A DNA stretch of 64,000 bases from an uncultured Alphaproteobacteria bacterium (GTDB lineage Bacteria > Pseudomonadota > Alphaproteobacteria > HIMB59 > GCA-002718135), in contig CACIED010000005.1 in the NCBI GenBank assembly GCA_902585605.1, forward strand, positions 586 through 64,585, written 5' to 3'. The notes under the pieces are model-generated. The model saw only the letters and a program-made list of their open reading frames with translations. It was not told the origin of the DNA and ran no database searches. Of this stretch, positions 28,941 to 52,613 are shown one piece after another; positions within the stretch are counted from its first letter, which is position 1; each line of letters opens with the position of its first letter. The position numbers and the translations under genes were made by a program.

Positions 28941-28976
28941 AAATATTTCTTATCAAAAGTGTTGTTCTAAAAACAT

Positions 28977-29000
28977 AAAAAAAACCGCCCTAAGGCGGTT
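28977..29000 (-). terminator. Intrinsic terminator downstream of glnA
   Basis: On the minus strand, an AACCGCC-TTAG-GGCGGTT hairpin is followed by eight U residues, 25 nt after the glnA stop codon. Confidence 0.8.
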
Positions 29001-29024
29001 TTCTTTATAGAGACAAGTATAATT

Positions 29025-30455
29025 CTACACGTCGTAGTATAGTTTAAACTCGTGTGGATGAGGTCTAATATTAATCGGGTCAACCTCACTCTCTTTTTTA
29101 TAGCTAATATAAGTTTCAATTACATCTTTGGTGAATACATCACCCTCTAATAAAAATGCATGATCTTTTTCAAGAGCTTCAAGAGATTCAGCTAAAGATC
29201 CAGGCGTAGATTGAATTTTAGACAAAACTTCATCGCTAGCAGCATAGAGATTTATATCTGTTGGATCACCAGGATTAATTTTATTTTTAATTCCATCTAA
29301 TCCTGCCATTAACATTGCTGAGAATGCTAAGTATGGATTTGCACTTGGATCTGGACATCTAAACTCCATTCTTTTTGCTTTAGGGCTTTGAGAATAAGCA
29401 GGAATTCTAACAGATGCAGTTCTATTTCTTTGAGAGTAAACAATGTTCACCGGAGCCTCAAAGCCTGGGACCAATCTTTTATAAGAATTAGTAGTAGGAG
29501 CACAAAAAGCTAAAAGAGCAGGTGCATGTTTAAGTATACCGCCAATATAATTTAGAGCTAAATCACTTAGGTTAGCATAGTTACCCTCTTTATACATTAA
29601 TGTGTCACCGTCTTTCCAAACACTTTGATGAACGTGCATACCTGAACCATTATCTTCGAATAAAGGTTTAGGCATAAATGTAGCTGTCATTCCATGTTGT
29701 CTAGCAACATTTTTAACAACGTACTTATATTTCATCATGTCATCAGCCATTTTTAGTAAAGGCGAAAATTCTAAATCAATTTCACATTGTCCACCTGTTG
29801 CAACTTCATGGTGATGTGCTTCAACTGTAAGACCAATGTCTTGCATTGTCATTACCATTTCAGTTCTTACATCTTGAAGTGTATCAACTGGCGGTAAAGG
29901 AAAATAACCTTCTTTATGTCTAGGCTTATGACCTAAGTTTGGATTTTCATCAGCACCACTATTCCAAGTACCTTCAACAGAATCAACTTCATGAAATGCA
30001 AAATTTGATCCTGAGTCAAACTGAACGTTATTAAACACAAAAAATTCTGCTTCTGGACCAAAAAATGCTGTGTCACCGATACCAGATGATTTCAAATAAG
30101 CTTCAGCTTTTTTAGCAATATTTCTTGGATCACGACTATAGTCAACCAAAGTTACAGGATCTTTAATATTACAATGTAATGCCAAAGTTTTTTCTGAAAA
30201 AAATGGATCAATATAGGCTGTTGTTGCATCTGGCAAAACAATCATATCACTGTCTTGAATTTCTTGGAAACCTCTTACTGAAGATCCATCAAAACCAAGT
30301 CCATCAGAAAATATATCTTCGTCTAAAAATTTAATTGGTATTGTAAAATGTTGAGTTGTTCCTGGTATATCAGTAAAGCGCATATCAACCATCTTAATGT
30401 CCATATCTTTAATTTCAGACATTAAATCTTTTGGAGTCGAGCTTTTTAATTTCAT
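29025..30455 (-). CDS. glnA: Glutamine synthetase type I
   Basis: 476 aa; [52 protein letters not shown]. Confidence 0.95.
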
Positions 30456-30540
30456 ATCTATCTCCTTACTTCAACAAAAGGGTATGCTATCCAGCGTTAC
30501 CCGGTTAAATCATGCTCTAGTTATGAAATCTGCTTTTGAT

Positions 30541-30596
30541 GCGCGTTCCTTCAGCTTATAGCCTACTTCCGACCTATATATAATAGGTTGAACGAT
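30541..30596 (-). promoter_or_regulatory. Glutamine riboswitch aptamer (glnA RNA motif), copy proximal to glnA
   Basis: Minus-strand RNA AUCGUUCAACCUAUUAUAUAUAGGUCGGAAGUAGGCUAUAAGCUGAAGGAACGCGC. P1 is CGUUC/GAACG. The junctions UCGGAAGUAGG and GAAGGAACG are conserved, and there are two internal hairpins. Confidence 0.8.
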
Positions 30597-30607
30597 TTAT
30601 AACTTTT

Positions 30608-30662
30608 GCATGCGTTCCTTCGGCACAATGCCTACTTCCGACTCTAAAAGAGTTGAACGATT
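30608..30662 (-). promoter_or_regulatory. Glutamine riboswitch aptamer (glnA RNA motif), distal copy
   Basis: Minus-strand RNA AAUCGUUCAACUCUUUUAGAGUCGGAAGUAGGCAUUGUGCCGAAGGAACGCAUGC. The junction strands are identical to the proximal copy, and the hairpins differ by compensatory changes. Confidence 0.8.
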
Positions 30663-30702
30663 ATTGGTTAATTACTAGGTTTTATATAAAAGTAAAGAAA
30701 AA

Positions 30703-31044
30703 TTAGACAGCATCACTGTCTTTTTCACCAGTCCTTATTCTAATTACCTGCTCAATATTCGATACAAAAATCTTACCATCGCCGATTTTTCCAGAATAAG
30801 CGCTAGTTTTTATTGATTCAATAACATCATCTACTTGATTGTCTTCAACGATTACTTCAAGTTTCATTTTTGCTAAAAATTCATCATCATACCCATCATT
30901 AGGATCAATTCCACCAGTTGACCCTCTTTGTCTACCGAAACCTTTTACATCTACTAATGTCATCCCGGATATTCCAAGTTCATGTAAAGCTTCTTTAACT
31001 TGAGAAAGTTTAAATGGTTTAATGATTGCTTCTATTTTTTTCAT
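30703..31044 (-). CDS. glnB: Nitrogen regulatory protein P-II
   Basis: 113 aa; MKKIEAIIKPFKL..VKEAL, T-loop GFGRQRG, and a canonical C-terminal IRIRTGE. Confidence 0.95.
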   Translation of the reverse strand: MKKIEAIIKPFKLSQVKEALHELGISGMTLVDVKGFGRQRGSTGGIDPNDGYDDEFLAKMKLEVIVEDNQVDDVIESIKTSAYSGKIGDGKIFVSNIEQVIRIRTGEKDSDAV

Positions 31045-32198
31045 ATTGTTGATAACCTATTAATTGCTTCTTTAATGTTTTCTAGAGAATTAGCAAAACT
31101 TATTCTAACAAATTCTCCAGCATTATCTCCAAAGCTAGAGCCTGGAACTAATGCAACACCTTTTTCTTCAAGTGCGATTTCTGAAAATTTATTTCCACTC
31201 AATCCAGTTTTTGAAATATTGGGAAATGCATAAAAAGCACCACCCGGTTCAAAACAAGAGATTTTTTCTAATTTATTCAATTCGTTAAAAACGTATTCTT
31301 TTCTTTTTTTAAATTCACTAACAATTTTTGTTATTTCTTTCTGAGAACCTTTTATTGCTTCTAATCCTGCATATTGCGAAATTGAGGTAGCGCAGGAATT
31401 ATAATTGATACATATTTTATTAGCATGTTCAATTAAATTTTCTGGCCATATACTCCAGCCTAACCTCCATCCAGTCATACAATATGTTTTGCTCCATCCT
31501 TCAAGAACTATCAATCTATCTTTTATACTTTCGTATTCTAATAATGATGGCATTTGTTCATTATTAAAAATAATGTTACTATAAATTTCATCACTTAAAA
31601 TGGAGACGTTTGGATATTGCTCTAATAAATTAACAAGATCAGTAATTTTTTTCTTATTCATATATGATCCTGTTGGATTGTTTGGATTATTTATTATTAT
31701 CAAACTTGTTTTATCAGAAATTAATTCTTTTAATTGTTCAGTATTAATTTCGAAATTATCTTTTTCTGAAAGCTTTAATGGTACAGCTTTTGCACCGCTG
31801 TATTTAATCATAGATCTATAAATTGGAAATCCTGGATCAGGAAAAATTATTTCTCTATCCTCACTACCTAACAATAATGCTGAAATAAAAATTACAGGCT
31901 TACCTCCTGGAGTAATTAAAACATTTTCTGACTTAATATTTGTTTTGTATTTGTTGAGTACTAACTCTGAGATTGCTTCTCGTAATTCAGGTATACCATT
32001 TGATGGAGTATATCCATGATAACCATCTTTGATTGCCTTAATAGCAGCTTCTTGTATATTGATTGGAGTAGGAAAATCAGGTTGTCCAATTCCCAAATTG
32101 ATAATATCTTTACCTTTGGCTGCTAGATCATTGGCTTTAGCAAGAATAGAGAATGCCGTTTCTGTTTCTAAATTAAATATTCTTTTTGAAACTTCCAT
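31041..32198 (-). CDS. PLP-dependent aminotransferase class I/II (aspartate aminotransferase-like)
   Basis: 385 aa; NNPNNPTG, SKTYCMTGWRLGW (PLP-Lys context). Overlaps glnB by 4 nt. Confidence 0.85.
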   Translation of the reverse strand: MEVSKRIFNLETETAFSILAKANDLAAKGKDIINLGIGQPDFPTPINIQEAAIKAIKDGYHGYTPSNGIPELREAISELVLNKYKTNIKSENVLITPGGKPVIFISALLLGSEDREIIFPDPGFPIYRSMIKYSGAKAVPLKLSEKDNFEINTEQLKELISDKTSLIIINNPNNPTGSYMNKKKITDLVNLLEQYPNVSILSDEIYSNIIFNNEQMPSLLEYESIKDRLIVLEGWSKTYCMTGWRLGWSIWPENLIEHANKICINYNSCATSISQYAGLEAIKGSQKEITKIVSEFKKRKEYVFNELNKLEKISCFEPGGAFYAFPNISKTGLSGNKFSEIALEEKGVALVPGSSFGDNAGEFVRISFANSLENIKEAINRLSTI

Positions 32199-32250: not shown

Positions 32251-32328
32251 GGCGAACGTAGCTCAGTTGGTTAGAGCGCAGGCTTGTGGTGCCTGATGCC
32301 GTGGGTTCGAATCCCATCGTTCGCCCCA
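32251..32328 (+). tRNA. tRNA-His (GTG) with genome-encoded G-1 and C73
   Basis: Acceptor GCGAACG/CGTTCGC preceded by G (-1) and followed by C73 and CCA. Anticodon loop TTGTGGT, T-loop TTCGAAT. Confidence 0.95.
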
Positions 32329-32394
32329 ATTTGTATTAAGTTAATTTTCTCTATTGTTTTTTAATTTATTGTACATAAAAGGCTAATAATAATA

Positions 32395-32479
32395 GGGCCG
32401 GTGGTGGAATTGGTAGACACGCTAGATTTAGGTTCTAGTGCCGCGAGGTGTGAAGGTTCAAGTCCTTTCCGGCCTACCA
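32395..32479 (+). tRNA. tRNA-Leu (TAG)
   Basis: 85 nt with a long variable arm. Acceptor GGGCCGG/CCGGCCT, anticodon loop TTTAGGT, encoded CCA. Confidence 0.95.
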
Positions 32480-38838: not shown

Positions 38839-39204
38839 GTGTCTGAGTTTCTATTTGAATATTTGCCTATTTTGATTTTTATTTTTATTGCTCTAGCATT
38901 AGCTATTGGCATGACATTACTATCTTTTGTAGTGGGAGACTCCCAACCAGATAAAGAAAAACTATCAGCTTATGAATGCGGGTTTGAAGCTTTTGATGAT
39001 GCTCGCGGAAGATTTGATGTAAGATTTTATTTAGTAGCAATTCTTTTTATAATTTTTGATTTAGAGGTTGCCTTTTTATTTCCTTGGGCAATAACATTAG
39101 GCAAAATTGGATTATTTGGCTTTTGGTCGATGATGATATTTTTAACAGTTTTAACAATTGGTTTTATTTATGAATGGAAAAAAGGAGCTTTAGAATGGGA
39201 GTAG
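38839..39204 (+). CDS. nuoA: NADH-quinone oxidoreductase subunit A
   Basis: 121 aa, 3 TM; YECGF, FDLE..FLFPW. GTG start. Confidence 0.9.
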
Positions 39205-39707
39205 ATGAAGCTAAAAAATATGTTGATGATACTTTAAGCACAGAACTTTCTTCTAAGGGTTTCTTAGTCGCCAGTTATGACAAAATACTAACTTGGGCTA
39301 GAACAGGTTCTTTATGGCCTATGACTTTTGGATTGGCATGTTGTGGAGTTGAAATGATACATTCTTACATGGCAAGATATGATCTAGATCGTTATGGAGT
39401 TATACCAAGAGGTAGCCCCAGACAATCTGATGTAATGATTGTTGCTGGTACACTAACAAATAAAATGGCACCAGCTTTAAGAAAAGTTTATGATCAAATG
39501 CCTGAACCAAGATGGGTTATATCAATGGGCTCATGTGCAAATGGTGGTGGATATTATCACTATTCATATTCAGTAGTAAGAGGTTGCGATAGAATAGTTC
39601 CCGTTGATGTTTACGTACCAGGATGCCCCCCAACAGCAGAAGCATTAGTTTACGGTATATTGCAATTACAGAAAAAAATTAGAAGAGAAAATAAATTTAA
39701 AAGATAA
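39195..39707 (+). CDS. nuoB: NADH-quinone oxidoreductase subunit B
   Basis: [20 protein letters not shown]. The ATG at 39195 is preceded by AAAGGAG. The track's start at 39174 lies inside nuoA. Confidence 0.9.
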
Positions 39708-39712
39708 TTTAT

Positions 39713-40294
39713 ATGATTAAATTTCTTACTAAAATAGATGGCATAAATAATATTTTAGAGAATAATAATTTGTTAGAAATAGAATTTGAAAAAAATAATA
39801 TTATAAAAATTTTTAACGAATTAAGAGATAATATTGAGCTTAATTTCAATCAATTATTAGATATTACAGCTGTAGACTATCCTTCAAGAGAATTTAGATT
39901 TGATTTGATTTATATTTTGCAAAGTTTAACTAAAAATAAAAAAATTATTTTAAAAACTTTTATTAAAGAAAATGAAAACATAGAATCAATTACCAATATT
40001 CACAAATCTGCGGATTGGTATGAAAGAGAATGTTATGATTTATTTGGAATTGAATTTATTAACCATCCTGATTTAAGAAGGATAATGACGGATTACAATT
40101 TTGAAGGTTATCCGTTGCGCAAAGATTTTCCTTTAACAGGACATACAGAAGTTCGTTACGATGACCTTGAAAAAAAAGTAATATATGAGCCTGTTAAGTT
40201 AACTCAAGAATTTAGAAATTTCGATAGTGAATCTCCTTGGGAAGGAATGGAAAACAAACTTTTTGGTGATGAGAAATCTAGTGGTGAAAATTAA
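39713..40294 (+). CDS. nuoC: NADH-quinone oxidoreductase subunit C
   Basis: 193 aa; W.ERE..D.FGI.F..HPDLRR, PLRKDFPL. Confidence 0.9.
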   Translation: MIKFLTKIDGINNILENNNLLEIEFEKNNIIKIFNELRDNIELNFNQLLDITAVDYPSREFRFDLIYILQSLTKNKKIILKTFIKENENIESITNIHKSADWYERECYDLFGIEFINHPDLRRIMTDYNFEGYPLRKDFPLTGHTEVRYDDLEKKVIYEPVKLTQEFRNFDSESPWEGMENKLFGDEKSSGEN

Positions 40295-41473
40295 ATGAAA
40301 GAAGTAGAGCTTAATACAACTACAATTAACTTTGGCCCTCAACATCCAGCTGCGCATGGTGTTTTACGTCTAGTAGTTGAGCTTGAAGGTGAAGTAGTTC
40401 AAAGAGCAGAACCACACATCGGATTGTTACATAGGGGGACAGAAAAATTAATTGAATATAAAACTTATCTTCAGGCTGTCCCTTATTTTGATAGACTTGA
40501 TTACGTTTCACCAATGTGTCAAGAACATGCTTTTGCATTGGCAACCGAAAATCTCCTAGGTATCAATGTTCCTGAAAGAGCTAAATATATTCGGGTTATT
40601 TTTGCAGAAATTACTAGAATACTAAACCATTTATTAAATATACCTGCCTATGCTGCTGACATTGGTGCAGTGACACCTTTTTTATGGTGTTTTGAAGAAA
40701 GGGAAAAGCTTTTGGAGTTTCATGAAGCCGTATCTGGGGCAAGATTTCATGCAGCCTATTTTAGACCTGGCGGCGTTCATCAGGATATGCCAGAAGGAAT
40801 GGAAGTAAAATTATTTGAACATTTTAAAACTCTTCCAAAATTTATTGATGATCTTGAAAGCTTGCTTACTAATAACAGAATTTTAAGACAAAGATCAGTT
40901 GATATAGGAATAATTTCAAAGTCTGAAGCAATTGAATGGGGGTGTTCTGGTCCCGTATTAAGAAGTGCAGGTGTAGCATGGGATTTAAGAAGATCTCAAC
41001 CGTATGACGCCTATGATCAAGTTGATTTTGAAGTTCCTGTTGGAAAAAAGGGTGATTGTTTTGATCGATATTTGGTTCGCATAGAGGAAATGAGACAAAG
41101 CATTAGTATTATTAACCAATGTTTAAATAAAATCAAACCAGGTCCAATATCAATTGAGGATAATAAAATTACACCTCCTAAAAGAAATCAAATGAAAAAA
41201 TCAATGGAAGCTTTAATTCATCATTTTAAACTTTTCACTGAAGGTTACCGTGTTCCCGCTGGTCAAGTTTATAGTGCAGTAGAAGCTCCAAAGGGTGAAT
41301 TTGGCGTTTACCTTGTCTCTGATGGATCTAGTAAACCATATAGATGTAAAATAAGAGCACCAGGTTTTGCACACCTTCAAACATTGGATCATTTATCTAA
41401 AGGTCACTTAATGGCTGACATAGCCGCTATACTAGGTAGCTTAGATATTGTTTTTGGAGAGATAGATAGATAA
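40295..41473 (+). CDS. nuoD: NADH-quinone oxidoreductase subunit D
   Basis: 392 aa; [28 protein letters not shown]-terminal DIVFGEIDR. Confidence 0.95.
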
Positions 41474-42072
41474 TGCATCATCCTGGTACAAATAATAAAG
41501 TATATAAAAAAATTAATGATAATTTTGAATGGTCATCAGAAAATTTTAAAAAAATTTCTGAAATAATTAAAAAATATCCATCAAACCGTATTCAAAGCGC
41601 AGTTATTCCTTTACTTGATTTAGCACAAAGACAAAATAATGGATGGCTAAGTAAAAACTCAATGGAAAAAGTAGCTGAAACTCTAAGTATGTCTTATATA
41701 AGAGTGTTGGAAGTTGCCACTTTTTATTCCATGTTTAATTTAGAACCTATTGGTAAAAATTTTGTACAAATTTGTAGAACGACACCTTGTTGGTTAAGAG
41801 GGAGTGATAAACTGTCAAAAGTTGCACAAGAAGTTTGCGAAACTAATATTGGCGAGACAAGTGATAATGAAATATTTACAGTTGTTGAAGTTGAATGCTT
41901 AGGTGCATGTTGCAATGCTCCTATGGTCCAGATCAATGATGATTATTATGAAGATTTAGATGAAGAGAGTTTTAAAAAAATACTTCAAGATTTAAAAGAT
42001 AATAAATCAATAAAAGTAGGTTCACAAATTGGTAGAAAATCATCACAACCTGAAAGAAAATTTGATGCTTAA
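41473..42072 (+). CDS. nuoE: NADH-quinone oxidoreductase subunit E
   Basis: 2Fe-2S ligand context C..TPC, ECLGAC..AP. Confidence 0.9.
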
Positions 42073-43339
42073 AGAAAAAGATAAAATTTTTAAAAATTTA
42101 TACGGTTTTGATGATTGGAAATTAGAAGGTGCCAAAAAAAGAGGTATTTGGTCAAATACTAAAGAACTTATTAAAATGGGTAGTGAAAAAATTGTTGAGG
42201 AAATTAAAAATAGTCAATTAAGAGGAAGGGGAGGAGCAGGTTTCCCTGCGGGACTTAAGTGGTCATTTATGCCAAAAGACTCTGGAAAAGATCATTACCT
42301 AGTTGTTAATGCAGATGAGTCAGAGCCAGGCACATGTAAAGATCGAGAGATTATGAGAAACGACCCACATCTTCTTTTAGAAGGTTGTTTAGTTGCTGCC
42401 TTTGCTATGCATGCACATACTTGTTATATATATATAAGGGGTGAATATTATTCTGAATCTTCTAATTTACAAAAAGCAATAGATGAAGCCTACGCAAATA
42501 ATTTAATTGGTAAAAATGCATGTGGTACAGGGTGGGATTTTGATATTTATCTTCATAGAGGAGCAGGAGCATATATTTGTGGTGAAGAAACTGCTTTACT
42601 TGAAAGTTTAGAGGGTAAAAAAGGCCAACCTCGATTAAAACCTCCGTTTCCCGCTGGTGCAGGTTTATATGGATGCCCAACAACAGTTACAAATGTTGAA
42701 ACAGTTGCCGTTTCACCAACTATTTTAAGACGTGGTTCAAAATGGTTCGCTGATTTAGGAAGTGCCAACAATACAGGTACAAAAATTTTTAGTATTTCAG
42801 GACACGTTAATAATCCATGCAATGTAGAAGAGGAAATGGGGATACCATTAAAAGAACTGATTGAAAAACATGCAGGTGGTGTAATTGGTGGTTGGGAAAA
42901 TTTATTAGCTGTAATTCCTGGAGGTGCAAGTGTGCCTTTATTACCTAAGTCTATTTGCGATACTGTTAAAATGGATTTTGATAGCCTAAAAGAAGTTCAA
43001 AGTGGATTAGGAACTGCTGCTGTTATTGTAATGAATAAATCAACAGATATTGTTGAAGCGATAGCTAGATTATCACATTTTTATAAACATGAAAGCTGCG
43101 GTCAATGTACACCTTGCAGAGAAGGTACTGGATGGATGTACAGAATGATGGAAAAAATGGTTCATGGAAATGTTGAACATCAAGATATTGATAAAATTTT
43201 AGATGTGACTAAGCAAATTGAAGGTCATACTATTTGTGCCTTAGGTGATGCTGCTGCTTGGCCTATTCAAGGTTTGTTTAGACACTTTAGACCTGAAATT
43301 GAAAAAAGAATTCAAGAAAGAAATAAAAGAGTAGCCTAG
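42065..43339 (+). CDS. nuoF: NADH-quinone oxidoreductase subunit F
   Basis: [26 protein letters not shown]. The ATG at 42065 (MLKEKDKIF) overlaps the nuoE stop codon. The track's start at 42029 is an extension inside nuoE. Confidence 0.9.
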
Positions 43340-45378
43340 TGCCAAAGATAACTATTGATAATAAAGAATACGAATTTGAAAACGGCATGACCGTAATGCA
43401 AGCTTGTGAACAAGCAGGAACTGAAATTCCAAGATTTTGTTATCATGAAAAACTCTCAATAGCAGGAAACTGTAGAATGTGTTTAGTAGAAATGGAAAAA
43501 GCTCCAAAACCTATTGCATCATGTGCCATGCCAGCTGCAGATGGAATGGTTATAAAAACAAAAACAGAAACAGTTAAAAAAGCTCGAAAAGGTGTAATGG
43601 AGTTTCTTCTCATTAATCATCCATTGGATTGCCCTATTTGTGATCAAGGAGGAGAATGTGATCTTCAAGATCAAGCGATGTATTATGGTTTTGATAAAAC
43701 TAGATATGAAGAAAACAAAAGAGCAGTTCAAAATAAAAATATGGGACCACTTGTCAAAACAATTATGACAAGATGTATACATTGTACAAGATGCGTAAGG
43801 TTTTCTACAGAAGTTGCGGGTGTTGATGATATAGGATTACTTGGCAGAGGTGAAAATGCTGAGATCACGACGTACTTAGAAAAAACTATTGAGTCAGAAT
43901 TATCTGGAAATGTAATTGATTTATGCCCCGTAGGTGCTTTAACAAGCAAACCATATGCATTTAAATCTAGACCATGGGAGTTAACCAAGACAGAAACATT
44001 TGATGTGTTTGATGGTATAGGTTCAAGTATAAGGATTGATACAAGAGGAAAAAAAGTTTTAAGAGCTCTTCCTAGAATAAATGAAGAAACCAATGAAGAA
44101 TGGATAAGCGATAAATCTAGATTTGCAGTTGATGGACTCTCAAGTCAAAGATTGGATAATGTATATTCTAAATCAAATAATAAACTCCAAAAATCTTCAT
44201 GGGATAATGCATTTGAATTAATAAAAAAAGAAATTACAAAAAGACGTAAAGAAAATACTGTATTCCTATCTGGTAAGTTTACCGATATTGAAACTTTATA
44301 TTCCGCACAAAAATTTAGCAATTCACTAAAATCAAAAAACTATGATTGTAGATTTGATAATACACAAATTATCGATAATTCATCTTCAAGTTATAAATTT
44401 AATTCAACAATTCAAGAAATTGAAAAGGCTGATGCTATTCTTTTAATCGGATCAAACCCTAGATGGGAAGCAGCGGTACTAAACGCTAGAATTAGAAAGG
44501 CATATATTGAAAATAACTGCAAAATTGGCCTTATAGGTCCTAAATTAGATCTTACTTACGATTATCATCATTTATCTGATTCTTTAGATTACCTTAATAA
44601 ATTATCTAATAATAAATCTGAATTCAATAAAGTTTTAAAATCTGCAAAAAACCCACTTATAATATTAGGTACTTCAGCAATAAATAATGATCATGGAAAA
44701 AAAATATTAGAAACTGCAGGATTAATTGCGAAAAAAATTCAAAAAAATAAAAATATAAATCCATTAAATATTCTTAACCAAGATATTTCTAGAGTAGGAG
44801 CATTAGATTTGAAATTTTATAATAAAAAATTTGATAATGATTACAATAAACAATTAAAAAAACATATTGATAAAACAAAGCCTGTAGTTTTCTTAATGGG
44901 GTTAGATGAGATAAATTTTTCAACATTTGAAAATGCTTTTGTTGTTTATCTTGGTCATCATGGAGATGTTTCAGCATCTATAGCTGATATAATTTTACCA
45001 ACCCCTGCATATACTGAGAAAAGTTCTACTTATATGAATATAGAAGGTAGAGTTATTCAAACAACTAAGTGTCATAATCCAATAGGTGAAGCAAAAGAGG
45101 AGTGGAAAATTTTTAGAGTTTTAAGTGACTTATTTGAAAAAAATTTAAATTTCAATAATCTTGGGGAGCTTCGAAATGAGCTTACAAGTACCTATGGTCA
45201 ATTTGCTCTCTTAAATGAAGTTAATTCTATTGGCGAAATAACTTTTGCTAAAAATAATAAAATTGAGAATATTAAAATTAAATATAACATTGAAAATTTT
45301 TATATGAATGATTCTATTTCTAGATCTTCTGAAACAATGGCAAAATGCACTAAAGATATTTTAAATAAGGCAGCATAA
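43339..45378 (+). CDS. nuoG: NADH-quinone oxidoreductase subunit G
   Basis: 679 aa; Fe-S motifs CYHE..SIAGNCRMC, HPLDCPICDQGGEC, CIHCTRCVRF. Confidence 0.95.
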   Translation: MPKITIDNKEYEFENGMTVMQACEQAGTEIPRFCYHEKLSIAGNCRMCLVEMEKAPKPIASCAMPAADGMVIKTKTETVKKARKGVMEFLLINHPLDCPICDQGGECDLQDQAMYYGFDKTRYEENKRAVQNKNMGPLVKTIMTRCIHCTRCVRFSTEVAGVDDIGLLGRGENAEITTYLEKTIESELSGNVIDLCPVGALTSKPYAFKSRPWELTKTETFDVFDGIGSSIRIDTRGKKVLRALPRINEETNEEWISDKSRFAVDGLSSQRLDNVYSKSNNKLQKSSWDNAFELIKKEITKRRKENTVFLSGKFTDIETLYSAQKFSNSLKSKNYDCRFDNTQIIDNSSSSYKFNSTIQEIEKADAILLIGSNPRWEAAVLNARIRKAYIENNCKIGLIGPKLDLTYDYHHLSDSLDYLNKLSNNKSEFNKVLKSAKNPLIILGTSAINNDHGKKILETAGLIAKKIQKNKNINPLNILNQDISRVGALDLKFYNKKFDNDYNKQLKKHIDKTKPVVFLMGLDEINFSTFENAFVVYLGHHGDVSASIADIILPTPAYTEKSSTYMNIEGRVIQTTKCHNPIGEAKEEWKIFRVLSDLFEKNLNFNNLGELRNELTSTYGQFALLNEVNSIGEITFAKNNKIENIKIKYNIENFYMNDSISRSSETMAKCTKDILNKAA

Positions 45379-45385
45379 TAATTAG

Positions 45386-46387
45386 ATGACTTATGATATA
45401 TTAATTACAGGGTTAATAATCATTGCCCAAATACTTGCTGTTGTTGTGCCAGTTTTAATATCTGTAGCTTTTTTAGTTTATGCTGAAAGAAAAGTATTAG
45501 CATTAATTCAATTAAGAAGAGGTCCAAATATAGTAGGGCCTTTTGGTATATTACAAAGTTTTGCTGATGCATTAAAACTTATTACTAAAGAAAATATTAT
45601 ACCTAGTGGATCAAATAAAATTGTTTTTATTTTAGCACCCATAATAACAATGGTACTTAGCTTAGCAGGTTGGGCAGTAATACCTTTTGCTCCAGGATGG
45701 GTAGTCTCTGATATTAACGTAGGTATCATGTATCTCTTTGCAGTATCATCTCTTGGGGTATACGGAATAATAATGGCTGGATGGGCTAGTAACTCTCAAT
45801 ATCCTTTTCTAGGAGCATTAAGATCAGCTGCTCAAATGGTTTCATATGAAGTATCTATTGGATTTGTAATAATTACTGTATTATTATGTGTAGGTTCTTT
45901 AAATTTATCAAAGATAGTTTTAGCTCAGCAGACTGTATGGTTTGCAATTCCATTATTACCTATGTTCATTATTTTTTTTATTTCTGCGTTAGCTGAAACA
46001 AATAGATTACCTTTTGATCTTCCTGAAGATGAATCAACACTTGTTGCAGGATTTTTTACTGAATATTCATCTGCTTCATTTGTATTATTTTTTTTAGGTG
46101 AATACGCGAGTATGATTTTAATGTCTTCTATGACTGTCATTCTTTTTTTAGGCGGATGGCTTCCTCCATTTGATGTATACCCATTAAATGTTGTTCCTGG
46201 AGTAATCTGGTTTACTGTGAAAGTTATATTTATATTATTTTTATTTATTTGGGTTAGAGGAACTTTCCCAAGATATAGATATGATCAGTTAATGAGACTT
46301 GGATGGAAAGTTTTTTTACCGTTTTCTATGTTTTGGGTTGTGGCAACTTCTGGTTTTTTAGTATATTTTGACATGCTGCCAAATTAA
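45386..46387 (+). CDS. nuoH: NADH-quinone oxidoreductase subunit H
   Basis: 333 aa polytopic; AERK.LA..Q.R.GPN, ETNR.PFDL.E.ES. Confidence 0.95.
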
Positions 46388-46388
46388 T

Positions 46389-46868
46389 ATGTATAAATTA
46401 ATTAAATCTTTTACTTTATTTGAATTATTTCAAGGACTATTTTTAACTTTCAAATACATATTTAAATCTAAAGTTACAATAAATTATCCTCACGAAAAAG
46501 GTCCATTAAGTCCACGTTTTAGAGGCGAGCATGCTTTGAGAAGATATCCAAGTGGGGAAGAGAGATGTATCGCATGTAAACTTTGTGAAGCAGTATGTCC
46601 TGCTCAGGCAATTACAATTGAAGCAGAGCCAAGAGAGGACGGAAGCAGAAGAACAACAAGATATGATATAGATATGACTAAATGTATTTACTGTGGTTTA
46701 TGTCAAGAATCTTGCCCAGTTGATGCGATAGTAGAAGGACCAAATTTTGAATTTGCCACTGAAACAAGAGAAGAATTAATTTATAATAAAGATAAACTTT
46801 TAGAAAATGGAGATAGATGGGAGCAAGAAATTGCTCAAAATATTCATCTCGATAGAAAATATAGATAA
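46389..46868 (+). CDS. nuoI: NADH-quinone oxidoreductase subunit I
   Basis: Two 4Fe-4S motifs: [12 protein letters not shown] and [12 protein letters not shown]. The ATG at 46389 is preferred over the track's start at 46368. Confidence 0.9.
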
Positions 46869-46870
46869 GA

Positions 46871-47482
46871 ATGGTTCTTTATTCATTAACATTTTATCTT
46901 TTTTCATCTGTTGCAGTTCTTTCTGCTCTAATGGTTATAAGTGCAAAAAATCCAGTTCATTCAGTTTTGTTCTTAATTTTAAGCTTTGTTAACGCATCAG
47001 GACTCTTTGTTTTATTAGGTGCTGAATTTTTGGCAATGATCCTTGTTGTTGTATATGTTGGAGCTGTTGCCGTCCTTTTTCTATTCGTTGTAATGATGCT
47101 TGATATAAATTTTGTAAAGTTGAGAGAGGGTTTTTTGCAATATTTACCTTTTGGAGCATTATTAGGGATAGTTCTAGTAATTGAACTTGGAATACTTTTT
47201 TTAACAGATAGATCGTCTAATATTTATAACAATCAAACACCACTACAACCTATAGTTAATGAAGTGGAAAATACAAAAATGATTGGGCAAATACTCTACA
47301 CTGAATATTTTTATTTATTTCAAATATGTGGGATAATTTTATTAGTCGCAATGATTGGCTCTATTACACTTACATTAAGAGATAAAGGTGGTGTTAAAAG
47401 GCAAAATATAGATTCTCAAAATACAGTTGATGCATCAACAGCTATAGAAAAGAAAAAAGTAAAAATAGGCGAAGGAATTTAA
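46871..47482 (+). CDS. nuoJ: NADH-quinone oxidoreductase subunit J
   Basis: 203 aa hydrophobic; NPVHS.L.LI, YVGAV.VLFLFV.MML. Confidence 0.9.
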   Translation: MVLYSLTFYLFSSVAVLSALMVISAKNPVHSVLFLILSFVNASGLFVLLGAEFLAMILVVVYVGAVAVLFLFVVMMLDINFVKLREGFLQYLPFGALLGIVLVIELGILFLTDRSSNIYNNQTPLQPIVNEVENTKMIGQILYTEYFYLFQICGIILLVAMIGSITLTLRDKGGVKRQNIDSQNTVDASTAIEKKKVKIGEGI

Positions 47483-47485
47483 TTC

Positions 47486-47791
47486 ATGATTACTCTTGAA
47501 CACTATCTTTTTCTCGGTGCAATTATTTTTACCTTAGGTGTTTTAGGAATATTTTTAAATAAGAAAAATTTAATTATAATTTTAATGTCTATAGAACTCA
47601 TCTTGTTGTCGGTAAATATTAATTTTATTGCTTTCTCAGCTTATATTAATGATATCTCAGGGCAAATTTTTGCAATGCTTACACTTACTGTTGCAGCAGC
47701 TGAAGCAGCAATTGGACTTGCCATACTTGTAGTATTTTTTAGAAATTTAGGATCAATAGAAGTAAATAAAATTAATCAGCTTAAGGGATAG
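47486..47791 (+). CDS. nuoK: NADH-quinone oxidoreductase subunit K
   Basis: 101 aa, 3 TM; [22 protein letters not shown]. Confidence 0.9.
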
Positions 47792-47794
47792 TAG

Positions 47795-49702
47795 ATGGCA
47801 ACCTCAATTATATTTTTACCTCTACTTGGTTTTCTTTTTTGTTTTTTGCTAGGTAAACTGTTTCACTATAAGATTTATCAAATATCAACAACTTCAATTC
47901 TTTTTCTTTGTGCATTATTTTCTTGGATAATATTCATTCAATTTATTAATAATAAGGAAACTGAAACAATCTTTATTCTTAACTGGATTACTTCTGGAAA
48001 CTTTATTGTTGATTGGTCAATAAGATTAGACACGTTAACTGCCGTAATGTTCATTGTGGTTACAACTGTTTCCGCTTGTGTTCACTTATATTCAATAGGT
48101 TATATGGAAGAAGATCCATCAAAAATAAGATTTATGGGCTATCTAAGCTTATTTACTTTTTTTATGCTTGTGCTTGTATCAAGTAATAACTTGTTGCAAA
48201 TGTTTTTTGGTTGGGAGGGTGTTGGACTAGCCTCATATTTATTAATTGGTTTTTGGCACCATAAAGATTCAGCCAACAAAGCTGCTATAAAAGCATTTGT
48301 CGTAAATAGAGTTGGAGATTTTGGATACGCAATTGGAATTGCAGGAATTTTTTACATTTTTGGTACGATAAGTTTCGACAGTATATTTGAGCAAGTGGAT
48401 CAATTTAGTGAGCATCAAATTCAATTCCTTTCATTTAGTTTTCCAACTTTAGATTTTTTATGTTTTCTTTTATTTATAGGAGCAATGGGTAAATCTGCCC
48501 AATTAGGTTTACACACATGGCTGCCAGATGCTATGGAAGGACCTACTCCTGTTTCTGCGCTAATACATGCTGCAACAATGGTAACAGCTGGCGTATTTTT
48601 AGTTGCAAGAATGAGTCCTCTTTATGAGTTTGCTGCATTTACTAATTTATTCATTACTTTTGTAGGCGCGGCTACAGCTATTTTTGCCGCCTCTATAGCC
48701 TTAACACAAAATGATATTAAACGAGTGATTGCATATTCAACATGTAGTCAATTAGGATATATGTTTTTCGCAGCAGGTGTAGGTGCTTATAATGCATCAA
48801 TATTTCACTTAACAACCCATGCCTTTTTTAAAGCTCTTCTATTTCTTTCTGCAGGTTCTGTAATTCACGCAATGCATCATGAACAGGATATGAGAAAAAT
48901 GGGCGGACTTTTCAAAAAAATACCTTTTACCGCTACAATGATGTGGATTGGATCTCTTGCAATTATTGGTTTCCCGTATCTATCTGGCTACTATTCAAAA
49001 GAAAGTATTTTAGAAAATGCTTTCTATGCATCAAATGGAATAGCATATTTTGCATATTTAGTAGGTATTTTAACTGCTCTACTTACAGCTTTTTATTCAT
49101 GGAGATTATTATTTCTAACATTTCATGGTGAAAATAGATCAGAAAATAAAACATATGATCACGCCCATGAATCACCTTTAGTTATGACAGCTCCATTATT
49201 TATTCTTGCAATTGGTTCTATTTTTTCAGGAATATTCTTTGCTGATTATTTTATTGGATATTACAAAAAAGAATTTTGGGATAATGCAGTATTATTAACA
49301 GAGAGCTCTCATAAATATCTTCCTCTTACACAATCCTTAATATCAAAATCAGCTGTTGCAATTGGAATTCTTATATGTGTGTTGATATATTCAAATAATT
49401 TAAATAGAGCAAAAAATCTTTCTCATAACTTAGATCCCCTATATTCTCTTTCTAAAAATAAATGGTATGTGGATGAACTATATCATAAAGTATTTGTTTT
49501 AACTTTTTTCAAATTAGCAAACTTTTTTTGGAAAAGAGGAGATGAAAAAACTATCGATGGATTAGGGCCAAACGGAGTGTCTTGGATTATTTCAAAATCT
49601 TCATCTTATGTAAGTTTATTTCAATCAGGGTATTTGTTTCATTATGCTTTTGCTATGCTTGGCGGCTTAGTAATAATTTTAACATGGTTTTTATATTACT
49701 AA
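47795..49702 (+). CDS. nuoL: NADH-quinone oxidoreductase subunit L
   Basis: 635 aa antiporter-like subunit; GWEGVGLASYLLIGFW, KSAQ..LH.WLPDAMEGPTPVSALIHAATMV. Confidence 0.95.
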   Translation: MATSIIFLPLLGFLFCFLLGKLFHYKIYQISTTSILFLCALFSWIIFIQFINNKETETIFILNWITSGNFIVDWSIRLDTLTAVMFIVVTTVSACVHLYSIGYMEEDPSKIRFMGYLSLFTFFMLVLVSSNNLLQMFFGWEGVGLASYLLIGFWHHKDSANKAAIKAFVVNRVGDFGYAIGIAGIFYIFGTISFDSIFEQVDQFSEHQIQFLSFSFPTLDFLCFLLFIGAMGKSAQLGLHTWLPDAMEGPTPVSALIHAATMVTAGVFLVARMSPLYEFAAFTNLFITFVGAATAIFAASIALTQNDIKRVIAYSTCSQLGYMFFAAGVGAYNASIFHLTTHAFFKALLFLSAGSVIHAMHHEQDMRKMGGLFKKIPFTATMMWIGSLAIIGFPYLSGYYSKESILENAFYASNGIAYFAYLVGILTALLTAFYSWRLLFLTFHGENRSENKTYDHAHESPLVMTAPLFILAIGSIFSGIFFADYFIGYYKKEFWDNAVLLTESSHKYLPLTQSLISKSAVAIGILICVLIYSNNLNRAKNLSHNLDPLYSLSKNKWYVDELYHKVFVLTFFKLANFFWKRGDEKTIDGLGPNGVSWIISKSSSYVSLFQSGYLFHYAFAMLGGLVIILTWFLYY

Positions 49703-51187
49703 ATGATTGACTGGCCACTAGTATCAGTAATAATTTTTTTACCTTTAATTGGCGCTTTAATTATTCTTTTTATTAAAGAAGATGAATTAACATCAATTAA
49801 TATTAAATGGGCTGCTTTACTAACAACGTTAGGAACATTTATTTTAAGTTTAATACTTTGGTTACAATTTGATTACTCCAATCCATCTTATCAATATGAA
49901 GAAAAATTTAGATGGTTCGATGATTTTAATTTCTTCTACCATGTTGGTGTTGACGGTATCTCACTTTTTATGATTTTATTAAGTACATTTTTAACCCCAC
50001 TTTGTATTTTAGCTAGTTGGAATAATATAAAAAAAAGAGTCAAGGAATATATGCTTTCTTTTCTATTTTTAGAGACTGTAATGATTGGAATGTTTGCTTC
50101 TATAGATATACTTTTATTTTATATTTTTTTTGAAGCCGTATTAATACCAATGTATCTAATCATAGGTATTTGGGGAGGAAATAGAAGAATCTATGCTTCT
50201 TTTAAATTCTTTCTCTATACTCTTTTGGGGTCAGTACTCATGTTGATTGCTATTATTGTGATGTATAGAAATACAAGCTCAATGAGTATAGAGTTTTTAC
50301 AAGGTAATTATTTTTCCTATAATACTCAATTGTTTCTATGGCTTGCCTTCTTTGCTTCCTTTGCAGTTAAAATTCCTATGTGGCCTTTTCATACATGGTT
50401 GCCTGATGCACATGTTGAAGCTCCAACGGCTGGATCTGTTATTTTAGCTGGAGTACTTTTAAAAATGGGTGGATATGGTTTTATCCGTTTCTCTTTAGGC
50501 ATGCTTCCAGAAGCAACAGAGTTTTTTATTCCTTTAATTATGACATTAAGTATAGTTGCCATAGTATACACTTCCTTAGTAGCACTAGCACAAACTGATA
50601 TTAAAAAACTAATTGCATATTCATCTGTTGCTCATATGGGCATTGTAACAATTGGAATTTTCTTAGTTAATCAACAAGGTTTAGAAGGGGCAATGATGCA
50701 AATGATTAGTCATGGACTAGTTTCAGCAGCATTATTTTTATGTGTTGGTGTTATTTATGATCGAATGCATACTAGAGAAATTGAATTTTATGGAGGATTA
50801 GTTCAAAGAATGCCACTTTATGCAACAGTATTTATGATTTTTATGCTGGGATCAGTTGGATTACCTGGGACTAGTGGTTTTGTTGGAGAATTTTTAGTTA
50901 TTATTGGAGCATTTAAATTTTCAAGTTACGTTGTTATTGGCGCGGCTTTTGGAATAATATTATCCGCTGTTTACATGCTATATCTTTATAAAAGAATTAT
51001 TTTTGGCACCATAACTAATAATAAACTTGCAGATATTTTAGATATAAACACAAGAGAGAAAATCATATTAATTCCTTTAGCAATTTCAGTAATATTACTA
51101 GGTATATTTCCAAATCTATTTTTAGATCCTATGAGATTATCACTTGAACTAATTATAACAAACTATGAAATAGCTAATGCTAAATAA
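49703..51187 (+). CDS. nuoM: NADH-quinone oxidoreductase subunit M
   Basis: 494 aa; PFHTWLPDAHVEAPTAGSV.LAG.LLK. Confidence 0.95.
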   Translation: MIDWPLVSVIIFLPLIGALIILFIKEDELTSINIKWAALLTTLGTFILSLILWLQFDYSNPSYQYEEKFRWFDDFNFFYHVGVDGISLFMILLSTFLTPLCILASWNNIKKRVKEYMLSFLFLETVMIGMFASIDILLFYIFFEAVLIPMYLIIGIWGGNRRIYASFKFFLYTLLGSVLMLIAIIVMYRNTSSMSIEFLQGNYFSYNTQLFLWLAFFASFAVKIPMWPFHTWLPDAHVEAPTAGSVILAGVLLKMGGYGFIRFSLGMLPEATEFFIPLIMTLSIVAIVYTSLVALAQTDIKKLIAYSSVAHMGIVTIGIFLVNQQGLEGAMMQMISHGLVSAALFLCVGVIYDRMHTREIEFYGGLVQRMPLYATVFMIFMLGSVGLPGTSGFVGEFLVIIGAFKFSSYVVIGAAFGIILSAVYMLYLYKRIIFGTITNNKLADILDINTREKIILIPLAISVILLGIFPNLFLDPMRLSLELIITNYEIANAK

Positions 51188-52613
51188 TATTTACAATATT
51201 TTTTTTATACCTGAAATTTTTTTAGCATGCTCTTCTTTTGTATGCTTACTTTTTGGTCTTTTTTTAAAAAAGAATGCCTTTAGGCAAACTTCTAATTTAG
51301 CAGTTTTCGTTTTATTGTTAACCATTTTGCTTGTTTACTATGATAGTGAATCCAATTTTGCAAATTATAAAAGTTTATTTAGCCATTCTTCTTTTATAAA
51401 TTTTTTTAAAATTTTAGCTCTATTAGGATCAATAGCTAGTATCATTATTTCTAAAGATTATTTCTTAGGCATTAAGCTTAAAAATTTTGAAATTCCTGTT
51501 TTATTTTTATTTTCAACACTTGGGATGATGTTAATGATTGCTTCAAATAATCTTATGTCCATGTATTTAGCAATAGAACTGCAAAGTTTATCTTTGTATG
51601 TTGCTGCAGCAATAAAAAGAGATTCAATTTCATCAGCTGAGTCAGGAGTAAAATACTTTATTTTAGGAGCATTATCGTCTGGTATACTATTGTATGGCTT
51701 CTCCTTAATTTATGGATTCACTGGTTCAATGAATTTTGATGATATAAGTTTCTATTTATCAAAATATGATAATTTAAATTTAGGTCTAATATTTGGTCTT
51801 GTATTTGTGATGGTAGGCTTGGCTTTTAAGGTTTCAGCCGTACCTTTCCATATGTGGACTCCCGATGTTTATGAAGGAGCGCCAAACTCAATTACAGGTT
51901 TTTTTGCTATTGTCCCTAAGATTGCTGCAGTAGCTTTAATTTATCGTTTTTGCTTAGTTCCATTTGAAAATTTTTACTTAGAATGGAGTCAAATAATTTT
52001 ATTTTTATCAATAGCCTCAATGTTTCTTGGGGCTATCGCGGCTATAGCACAGTCAAATATTAAAAGATTATTAGCTTATAGTTCTATCGGACATATAGGC
52101 TATATATTAATAGCTTTAGTTGCCGCAAATGATGATGGAATTAAAGCAGCATCTATTTATATGTTTTCATACATGATAATGAATGTTGCTATTTTTGCTA
52201 TTTTACTTTCATTAAAAGTTAAAAATGAATATTTAATTAACATAAGTGATTTGAAAGGGTTAAGTAAAAGTAATCCAATCGTTAGTCTTTCTATTTCAAT
52301 AATAATGCTATCTATGGCTGGTATTCCACCTTTTATAGGATTTTTTGGAAAGTTTTATGTTTTCATTGCTGCAATTGAACAGGAATTATATGTACTTTCA
52401 GTTCTTGGTGTCCTAGCTAGTGTTATTTCTGCTTTTTATTATTTAAGAATTATTAAGATAATGTATTTTGATGAAAGTATTAGTGAAGGAATAATCAATT
52501 TTAAAATTTCCTTTCAATCAAAAATTATTCTATCCTTAAGTTTGTTTTTAATTATTTGTTTTATATTTTACCCGTCTTTATTGATTAATATATCAGCAAA
52601 TTTGACCATTTAA
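51177..52613 (+). CDS. nuoN: NADH-quinone oxidoreductase subunit N
   Basis: 478 aa; PFHMWTPDVYEGAP, LLAYSSIGH.G. Overlaps nuoM by 11 nt. Confidence 0.95.
   Translation: MLNNIYNIFFIPEIFLACSSFVCLLFGLFLKKNAFRQTSNLAVFVLLLTILLVYYDSESNFANYKSLFSHSSFINFFKILALLGSIASIIISKDYFLGIKLKNFEIPVLFLFSTLGMMLMIASNNLMSMYLAIELQSLSLYVAAAIKRDSISSAESGVKYFILGALSSGILLYGFSLIYGFTGSMNFDDISFYLSKYDNLNLGLIFGLVFVMVGLAFKVSAVPFHMWTPDVYEGAPNSITGFFAIVPKIAAVALIYRFCLVPFENFYLEWSQIILFLSIASMFLGAIAAIAQSNIKRLLAYSSIGHIGYILIALVAANDDGIKAASIYMFSYMIMNVAIFAILLSLKVKNEYLINISDLKGLSKSNPIVSLSISIIMLSMAGIPPFIGFFGKFYVFIAAIEQELYVLSVLGVLASVISAFYYLRIIKIMYFDESISEGIINFKISFQSKIILSLSLFLIICFIFYPSLLINISANLTI

Follow-up and report, generated by a model that had tools for sequence, protein, structure and literature searches.

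A tandem glutamine riboswitch with a putative translational platform in the glnA leader of marine alphaproteobacteria

Two glutamine aptamers in tandem upstream of glnA

The window analysed here is a 64-kb stretch of contig CACIED010000005.1 from an uncultured alphaproteobacterium, and the element of interest is the leader of its glnA, the gene for a type I glutamine synthetase (GS), in which two glutamine-riboswitch aptamers lie in tandem. An aminotransferase gene (aat), the P-II gene glnB, the leader and glnA follow one another on the minus strand (Table 1). In the open reading frame (ORF) list the stop codon of aat overlaps the start of glnB by 4 nt, and glnB is separated from glnA by a spacer of 247 nt (30456-30702). 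An initial annotation of this DNA had described the overlap, the co-oriented glnA and the alphaproteobacterial glnB-glnA setting, all of which the ORF list and the Pfam matches bear out. It had also read in the spacer two minus-strand copies of AUCGUUCAAC-hairpin-UCGGAAGUAGGC-hairpin-GAAGGAACGC, which is a correct description of the sequence, and had assigned both to the glnA RNA motif. The covariance-model (CM) check agrees with this assignment: when the whole window was compared with Rfam 15 by cmscan at the gathering threshold, both copies matched the glutamine riboswitch family RF01739 (Table 1), for which the gathering score is 35 bits. Both matches are full length (model positions 1-53 of 53, not truncated). 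No further RF01739 match was found in the window, where five tRNAs were the only other matches to Rfam.

The two aptamers, A1 and A2, share a three-stem fold in which P1 and the junctions CGGAAGUA and GAAGG are invariant columns in 71 leaders. Both carry the nucleotides of the 'linchpin', namely the GG of the CGGAAGUA junction and the C directly 3' of P1 (GGAACG-C, at 30612 and 30543). In the alignment of these 71 leaders, all of them distinct homologues, pairing in the six aptamer stems amounts to 99.4%, and 14 of the 26 pairs show compensatory double changes, values that were reached by none of 500 column shuffles. In both aptamers this covariation is confined to P2 and P3, since the invariant P1 can provide none. 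The pair lies 85 nt upstream of glnA on the sense strand, in the 5' leader of a nitrogen-metabolism gene, and the 18 nt between A1 and A2 hold no ORF or terminator according to the sequence, cmscan and a terminator scan. A1 and A2 are thus genuine RF01739 aptamers arranged in tandem in the glnA leader, and they are almost certainly functional glutamine aptamers that act in cis on glnA.

A GlnA protein scan of one genome per GTDB species returned 80 loci (loci of homologues and of metagenomes are given L-numbers below). The layout aat-glnB-A1-A2-glnA was present in all 70 relatives that had a GlnA identity of at least 74% and adequate upstream DNA, and two aptamer cores before glnA were found in none of nine ordinary alphaproteobacterial loci, with GlnA identities of 64-67%. 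Rfam confirmed the aptamer pairs in four divergent representatives (L047, L050, L063 and L067). The close relatives are marine single-cell genomes, among them AG-337-I02 (L035), whose GlnA is 99% identical to that of the window, and the remoter carriers of the tandem leader include a metagenome-assembled genome labelled HIMB59 and MarineAlpha5 bins. The genus AG-337-I02 has been equated with the order HIMB59 or AEGEAN-169 (PMC8692485), and the GC content of the window (~29%) is inside the AEGEAN-169 range of PMC10308909. Proteins identical to those of the window occur on 797 contigs for GlnA, under the NCBI name 'type I glutamate--ammonia ligase [Pelagibacteraceae bacterium]', and on at least 1000 contigs for P-II, as 'P-II family nitrogen regulator [Pelagibacteraceae bacterium]'. 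Judged from these comparisons, the tandem leader is fixed in the marine HIMB59/AEGEAN-169 clade ("SAR11 subclade V"), and the host is evidently AG-337-I02 or a close relative. Unlike SAR11 subclade Ia, HIMB59 has glnB, glnD and glnK together with a glnB-glnA arrangement (Smith et al. 2013, PMC3870248); the absence of ntrB and ntrC from HIMB59 is implied by the wording of that paper and not stated outright.

Table 1. Features of the aat-glnB-glnA locus, in window coordinates, and positions of the related amt leaders within their own loci
Feature	Position	Strand	Basis and details
aat, class I/II aminotransferase gene (aspartate-aminotransferase-like)	31041..32198	-	ORF list; Pfam PF00155, 5.8e-71; NCBIfam aminotransferase models
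glnB, P-II nitrogen regulatory protein, 113 aa	30703..31044	-	Pfam PF00543, 2.2e-33
Terminator-like 7-bp hairpin AGACAGUGAUGCUGUCU across the glnB stop codon, then AAUUUUUCUU	30705..30721	-	terminator scan
Promoter-like element CTTTAC (30697-30692), 17 nt, TAATTA (30674-30669)	30669..30697	-	conservation
Glutamine riboswitch aptamer 1 (A1)	30609..30661	-	RF01739, 64.3 bits, E 6e-12; P1 CGUUC/GAACG, P2 ACUCU/AGAGU, P3 GGC/GCC
Inter-aptamer linker L, 18 nt, CAUGCAAAAGUUAUAAAU	30595..30612	-	identical in 65/72 leaders, three minor variants
Glutamine riboswitch aptamer 2 (A2)	30540..30596	-	RF01739, 63.8 bits, E 8e-12; P1 CGUUC/GAACG, P2 ACCUA/UAGGU, P3 GGC/GCU
D1, semi-conserved trailer CGCAUCAAAAGCAG, bulged out under L:D2 pairing	30530..30543	-	alignment
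D2, invariant block AUUUCAUAAC-UAGA-GCAUG, beginning 14 nt 3' of A2	30511..30529	-	invariant columns
Hairpin H, inner stem GGGUA..UACCC (30502-30480), outer helix UUUAAC/GUUGAA, then U-rich tract	30470..30509	-	folding, alignment
Ribosome-binding region: Shine-Dalgarno sequence AAGGAG (30467-30462) and UAGAUAUGAAAU (30460-30449), with the glnA AUG inside it, complementary to D2	30449..30467	-	
glnA, type I glutamine synthetase, 476 aa, regulated gene	29025..30455	-	Pfam PF00120 and PF03951
Canonical intrinsic terminator 3' of glnA	28974..29009	-	terminator scan: 16-pair stem, then T-run
amt leader, L117	4433-4553	-	
amt leader, L128	8-131	+	
amt leader, L147	7817-7939	-	
amt leader, L157	1667-1796	-	
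amt leader, L172	2751-2871	+	
amt leader, L087	4538-4655	+	
amt leader, L090	516-634	+	
amt leader, L119	2318-2436	-	

A candidate expression platform

The linker between the aptamers (L) and a block of the trailer (D2) are nearly invariant even where the GlnA proteins of the lineages compared share no more than 74-77% identity. The first C of L (30612) occupies the linchpin-C position of A1 and its last base abuts P1 of A2, and the first C of the intervening segment D1 (30543) is at the linchpin-C position of A2. L and D2 can pair as CAUGC:GCAUG and AGUUAU:AUAACU, extendable by AAAU:AUUU across a bulged C. The duplex was calculated at -10.9 kcal/mol in the window, where none of 1000 shuffles was as good, and at -10.9 to -12.3 kcal/mol over the lineages, where 0-15 of 1000 dinucleotide shuffles matched it; RNAalifold also predicted the helix independently. 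As drawn, the L:D2 helix encloses A2 and abuts the P1 base of both aptamers with zero unpaired spacer nucleotides.

The same arrangement recurs elsewhere. A metagenome scan for tandem aptamers with other linkers yielded more than 20 linker types as well as triple arrays. Among these were leaders of Amt-family genes (Pfam PF00909) in which tandem RF01739 aptamers are combined with a module homologous, and not identical, to L and D2 of the window (Table 1). The linkers of these leaders are CAUGCUAAGUUAUAAAAU or CAUGCUACAGUUAAU and their D2 is AAUUUCCAUAGC-NAC-GCAUG or AAUUNAAUAAC-UAA-GCAUG; the L:D2 duplex reaches -10.5 to -11.5 kcal/mol, with 0-7 of 1000 shuffles as good, and it appears in most minimum free energy (MFE) folds of the whole leader. 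A variable hairpin and a Shine-Dalgarno sequence (SD) follow D2. This recurrence suggests a small riboswitch regulon of glnA and amt; the amt contigs come from marine metagenomes, and their link to the clade is putative.

D2 has a second possible partner in the start region of glnA, to which it is complementary over UAG-A-UAUGAAAU in the window and UUAUGAAAU in other lineages. This D2:start pairing comprises 8-9 contiguous pairs in all 71 leaders (99.6% pairable), is dominant in the unconstrained ensembles of nine of ten lineages and has a calculated energy of -5.9 to -12.1 kcal/mol, a value matched by 1-65 of 1000 shuffles. The U at -1 and the U at +7 are conserved even though codon 3 is Leu, Phe or Tyr, and the sole AAA to AGA change retains a G.U pair. 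Moreover, the conserved bulged C of D2 finds a partner only in the D2:start duplex, where it faces the G of AUG. L itself resembles the start region minus this G (UAU-AAAU versus UAUGAAAU), as do the variant linkers GUUAGAAAU and GUUUGAAUU.

Several observations weigh against these two pairings as alternative states of a switch. L:D2 is 98.2% pairable, and compensatory covariation in it is nil; variation in D2:start consists of two one-sided G.U changes, again with no compensatory covariation. In both cases the lack follows from the invariance of both partners, and adding the amt leaders to the covariation test brought one-sided changes only. In a control with the 58 genes of the window, the glnA start ranked only third for pairing with D2, and six of the 58 genes had at least eight contiguous start-region bases complementary to it; many genes of this AT-rich genome begin with AUGAAA. 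For the amt leaders, pairing of D2 with the ribosome-binding site (RBS) was no better than in shuffles (60-282 of 1000). In view of this control and of the amt shuffles, D2:start is plausible and only modestly supported. Complementarity and conservation thus argue for both putative pairings, and recurrence in the amt leaders argues additionally for L:D2. RNAalifold also pairs the GAAG of the A2 junction (GAAGGAACG) with the UUUC of D2 (alignment columns 134-137/161-164, window ~30552-30549/30528-30525). The 5' half of D2 may accordingly have a third potential partner inside the ligand-binding core of A2, which could matter for switching.

Between D2 and the SD stands hairpin H, which none of the 39 distinct variants lacks and which takes the form of at least 10 unrelated sequences; RNAalifold predicted it, with double changes. 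A U-run follows it in the window type (UUUUGUUG) and in others, such as L063-65, L055/57, L060 and L069, and is missing in about half of the lineages. We rejected H as a regulated intrinsic terminator forming the main mechanism: it is not among the calls of the terminator scan, a U-run does not follow it consistently, and a conserved antiterminator partner is absent, as H varies freely while everything upstream is invariant. The leader thus lacks the terminator with a conserved, mutually exclusive antiterminator that marks a transcription-attenuating riboswitch. Two other candidates were likewise set aside. A sigma-54 promoter in the spacer does not fit by eye, given the GG/GC spacing around CTGGATAGCAT, a segment that belongs to the variable hairpin H; and the short ORFs that would encode a leader peptide from the AUG inside D2 (GCAUGA) vary in length and sequence between lineages.

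Transcription of glnA and genomic surroundings

According to the initial annotation, no terminator separates glnB from the aptamers, and the riboswitch would hence be an internal gate. This claim now looks weak. A terminator-like hairpin spans the glnB stop codon; it is kept at synonymous sites in most lineages and broken in L047 and L058, and a T-run follows it only in window-like lineages, so that it is at best a weak or partial terminator. The hairpin GACAGUGAUGCUGUC corresponds to the last five glnB codons, and its synonymous sites are conserved though the P-II proteins are only 66-80% identical. Such conservation hints at a selected RNA or DNA structure at the end of glnB, which might act as a partial terminator or as a processing site.

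Further downstream, CTTTAC and a TA 17 nt later are the sole invariant bases between the glnB stop and A1 in 24 diverse lineages, and the rest of this interval varies freely. The element resembles a sigma-70-type -35/-10 pair, from which transcription would start a few bases before A1. Against this assignment, the box was not called by a consensus promoter scan and is not a strong match to the consensus. In L067 (MarineAlpha5_Bin12), the leader and glnA lie behind a divergent tRNA gene without aat-glnB, with a TATAAA box 8 nt before A1, and the homologous amt leaders sit directly behind TTGAAA-N17-TATAAT-like boxes. We infer that glnA probably has its own promoter, to which read-through from glnB past the weak stop-codon hairpin may add; with such a promoter, A1 would begin almost at the 5' end of the mRNA.

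Transcription of aat-glnB-glnA as one unit, with neither promoter nor terminator in the spacer and with the tandem riboswitch as a purely internal gate that uncouples glnA from glnB, would agree with the co-orientation of the three genes, with the 4-nt overlap and with the weakness of the glnB-stop hairpin, which is lost in two lineages and carries a lineage-specific T-run. Co-transcripts of glnB and glnA also occur in other alphaproteobacteria. We nevertheless regard a purely internal gate as quite unlikely, given the invariant CTTTAC-N17-TA at promoter distance from A1, the terminator-like site called at the glnB stop, the persistence of leader and glnA in L067 without aat-glnB and the promoter-like boxes directly upstream of the amt leaders. 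The choice between an internal gate and a separate promoter is independent of the platform and of its sign, and either can be combined with any reading of these.

The surroundings of the locus are ordinary housekeeping genes, and no mobile elements were seen. An apparently complete nuo operon (NADH dehydrogenase I; 38839-52613, plus strand; Pfam check on the first and fourth ORFs only) is preceded by tig-clpP-clpX-lon-hupB and two tRNAs, and two further tRNAs, encoded on the opposite strand, separate aat from tig (32252-32476, plus strand). The initial annotation had seen no regulator gene nearby, and we found no nitrogen regulator gene either among the roughly three quarters of the 58 window ORFs of at least 90 aa that were scanned, the unscanned ones being mostly in the apparent nuo operon. 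In L067 (3440-4010), the synteny of tig-clpP-clpX, tRNAs and leader-glnA-parE-like gene is kept, and the aat-glnB pair, which in the window stands between the tRNAs and the leader, is missing.

Two of the homologous loci look recombinant. In a comparison spanning window positions 32300-28900, L055 and L057 show ~95% and ~87% nucleotide identity to the window, respectively, over the part that holds aat-glnB and the aptamers; beyond ~30500, in hairpin H and glnA, the identity falls to ~74%, the level of distant HIMB59-type genomes. The breakpoint is inside the ultra-conserved leader, which might serve as a recombination site for the exchange of glnA alleles.

The metagenome scan also revealed arrays of other kinds. 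Triple aptamers, with three consecutive RF01739 matches separated by 7-nt and ~24-nt linkers, occur in L104 (8080-8254, plus strand) and L194 (1073-1248, plus strand) and also in L101, L140 and L185; the genes that follow them encode a Gcw_chp porin-like protein and a P-II protein. Linkers of the ~24-nt type (CGCCGTTAACAGGAAAACGTAAAT), together with the common trailer CAACCGTTAAACCC..CGAGTTTGACTTC..CCTGCAG, are found before GSII-like genes and a GS-I gene (L160) as well, and represent a second, different family of platforms. Tandems with linkers of 10-11 nt (CATTATCATAT, CATTGTAAAA, CATTATCGAT; L082, L085, L089, L105, L112, L122 and others) precede ORFs of ~67-80 aa, and in these the CACCUAAC or CACUUUGAC directly 3' of P1 is complementary to the SD (GGAGGGUG or GGAGGAGUG). 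This is the architecture proposed for the ON-type switches of cyanobacteria, in contrast to the platform of the window.

The sign of the switch and its relation to known systems

In the glutamine riboswitch, glutamine binds at the base of P1, where a junction G inserts and pairs with the linchpin C just 3' of P1, and the short helix attached there melts (PMC11477058); the same rule is given in PMC6212724, which cites Ren et al. 2015 for it. In the window, L begins with the linchpin C of A1, and L:D2 would be stacked with its inner end on P1 of A2, so that glutamine should loosen both ends of this helix. We propose that at low glutamine L would hold D2, the AUG would be free and GS would be made. 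Glutamine at either or both aptamers would loosen L:D2 from both ends and release D2; hairpin H would bring D2 and the start region together, L serving as a decoy of the latter, and the freed D2 would sequester the start codon and turn glnA translation off. A1 and A2 would, we infer from this model, be coupled through L:D2, and two aptamers on one helix would sharpen or widen the response. The RNA would then do part of the job that NtrBC does elsewhere in alphaproteobacteria, for glnA and apparently for amt.

A translational switch that is OFF at high glutamine is in our view the most likely sign, and we hold it with about even confidence. It fits the order of synthesis, as D2 is transcribed before the start region and L:D2 would therefore be the kinetic default. 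Both glnA and amt are repressed under nitrogen plenty in most bacteria, and the two-ended clamp suggests a reason for having two aptamers. In addition, the ON-type leaders of the metagenome scan have an anti-SD directly 3' of P1 (CACCU...GGAGGGUG), to which the leader of the window would add one extra, inverting element. The full proposal, namely the first OFF-type glutamine riboswitch, with a helix that is peeled by each glutamine and a protein-independent glnA/amt regulon that replaces NtrBC/sigma-54 in HIMB59/AEGEAN-169, is tentative, and we think it somewhat less likely to be right than wrong.

The nearest-neighbour ensembles point to no single sign. When A1 and A2 were locked in the native fold, the window moved from D2:start to L:D2 and the unpaired fraction of its AUG rose from 0.05 to 0.65, an ON response that was shared by L047, whereas most other lineages stayed in D2:start. 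The same parts could form an ON switch: glutamine would stabilise both P1 helices, L:D2 would stack coaxially on them and be favoured, and D2 would be kept off the start codon, while without ligand the P1 strands, which are identical in the two aptamers, would mispair, A1 giving the 3' strand and A2 the 5' strand, trapping L in a loop and leaving D2 to block the AUG. The unconstrained MFE fold of the window does show this swapped P1 pairing, the validated glutamine riboswitches are all ON switches (PMC6212724), and the genes associated with the motif were inferred to be down-regulated upon nitrogen depletion (Weinberg et al. 2010, PMC2864571). We consider an ON switch unlikely all the same, because it would place GS, and amt with the same module, under positive feedback by glutamine, which is physiologically odd, because the published effect of binding is capping of the P1 base and melting of the attached helix, not its extension (PMC6212724; PMC11477058), and because the predicted shift is missing in most lineages.

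L:D2 could also be constitutive and serve as a scaffold holding A1 and A2 in a set mutual position, much as the leader-linker helix does in tandem glycine riboswitches, the regulated step lying elsewhere, in H as an intrinsic terminator, in mRNA stability or in access to the SD, with D2:start as a coincidence of AT-rich sequence. The appearance of L:D2 in the RNAalifold consensus and in the MFE folds of most amt leaders would suit a scaffold, as would the U-run behind H in the window type and several lineages and the standing of D2:start, which is only in about the top 5% among the window genes and non-significant in the amt leaders. The freely varying H below an invariant upstream part, with no conserved antiterminator partner, the lack of the U-run in about half of the lineages and the terminator scan that passes over H argue the other way, and a scaffold leaves the bulged C of D2 and the conserved U residues at -1 and +7 unexplained; we judge it very unlikely. 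A translational OFF switch thus remains the reading that we prefer.

HIMB59/AEGEAN-169 bacteria are abundant in the surface ocean, and how nitrogen is sensed without NtrBC is a question that has been raised for SAR11 (PMC3870248). A large group of metagenomic riboswitches can now be assigned to a named clade with cultured members (HIMB59, LSUCC0245), and the candidate platform, which also precedes ammonium-transporter genes, is mutationally testable. If the OFF logic is true, one extra helix is enough for a single aptamer class to yield OFF as well as ON switches, and the reading as the first OFF-type switch would provide the first mechanistic rationale for tandem glutamine aptamers; if the OFF logic is false, the locus is a textbook example of a riboswitch class already described.

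The glnA RNA motif was reported from cyanobacteria and marine metagenomes in association with PII, GS, GOGAT and ammonium-transporter genes, in some cases in tandem (Weinberg et al. 2010, PMC2864571), and gifB served to validate the class as an ON switch (Klahn et al. 2018, PMC6212724). The latter work placed type-1 riboswitches upstream of marine metagenome glnA and stated, in 2018, that the effect of glutamine there and the taxon were not known. The class, the tandem layout and the gene association are therefore not new, and the initial annotation had overstated novelty in these respects. Among the papers accessible to our literature search, none ties a glutamine riboswitch to HIMB59 or AEGEAN-169, and the host clade and the expression platform appear to be new.

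Compared with the type 1 riboswitch of the Synechocystis gifB 5' untranslated region and with the Synechococcus aptamer solved by Ren et al. 2015, the aptamers of the window have the same P1, the same CGGAAGUA and GAAGG junctions, two variable hairpins and the linchpin C. Like that riboswitch they lie in the leader of a nitrogen gene, and their CM scores are nearly twice the gathering score. Unlike gifB, the window has two aptamers on one platform and an alphaproteobacterial host, and it is GS itself that is regulated, whereas gifB codes for a factor that inactivates GS. The nucleotides following P1 in the gifB leader base-pair with the RBS itself, and the helix that melts is the anti-RBS:RBS helix, which makes gifB an ON switch; in the window they would pair with D2, which is itself able to cover the start codon, and this probably inverts the logic. 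The locus belongs to the set of marine tandem glnA RNAs (Weinberg et al. 2010; Ames & Breaker 2011), which precede genes for GS, PII and ammonium transporters (PMC2864571). In those reports organisms and platforms were unassigned, whereas here a clade and a candidate platform have been identified.

The arrangement is also reminiscent of the tandem glycine riboswitch, in which two like aptamers serve one platform and the linker takes part in a conserved helix with a flanking segment. The linker of the glycine riboswitch pairs with the 5' leader, whereas that of the window would pair with the 3' trailer, and fold and ligand are unrelated. NtrBC/sigma-54 control resembles the proposed system in its targets, glnA and amt, and in its ultimate signal, the glutamine status of the cell. 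However, NtrBC acts through proteins and on transcription, via GlnD and PII, whereas control in the window would be exerted by a cis-acting RNA that presumably reads glutamine directly.

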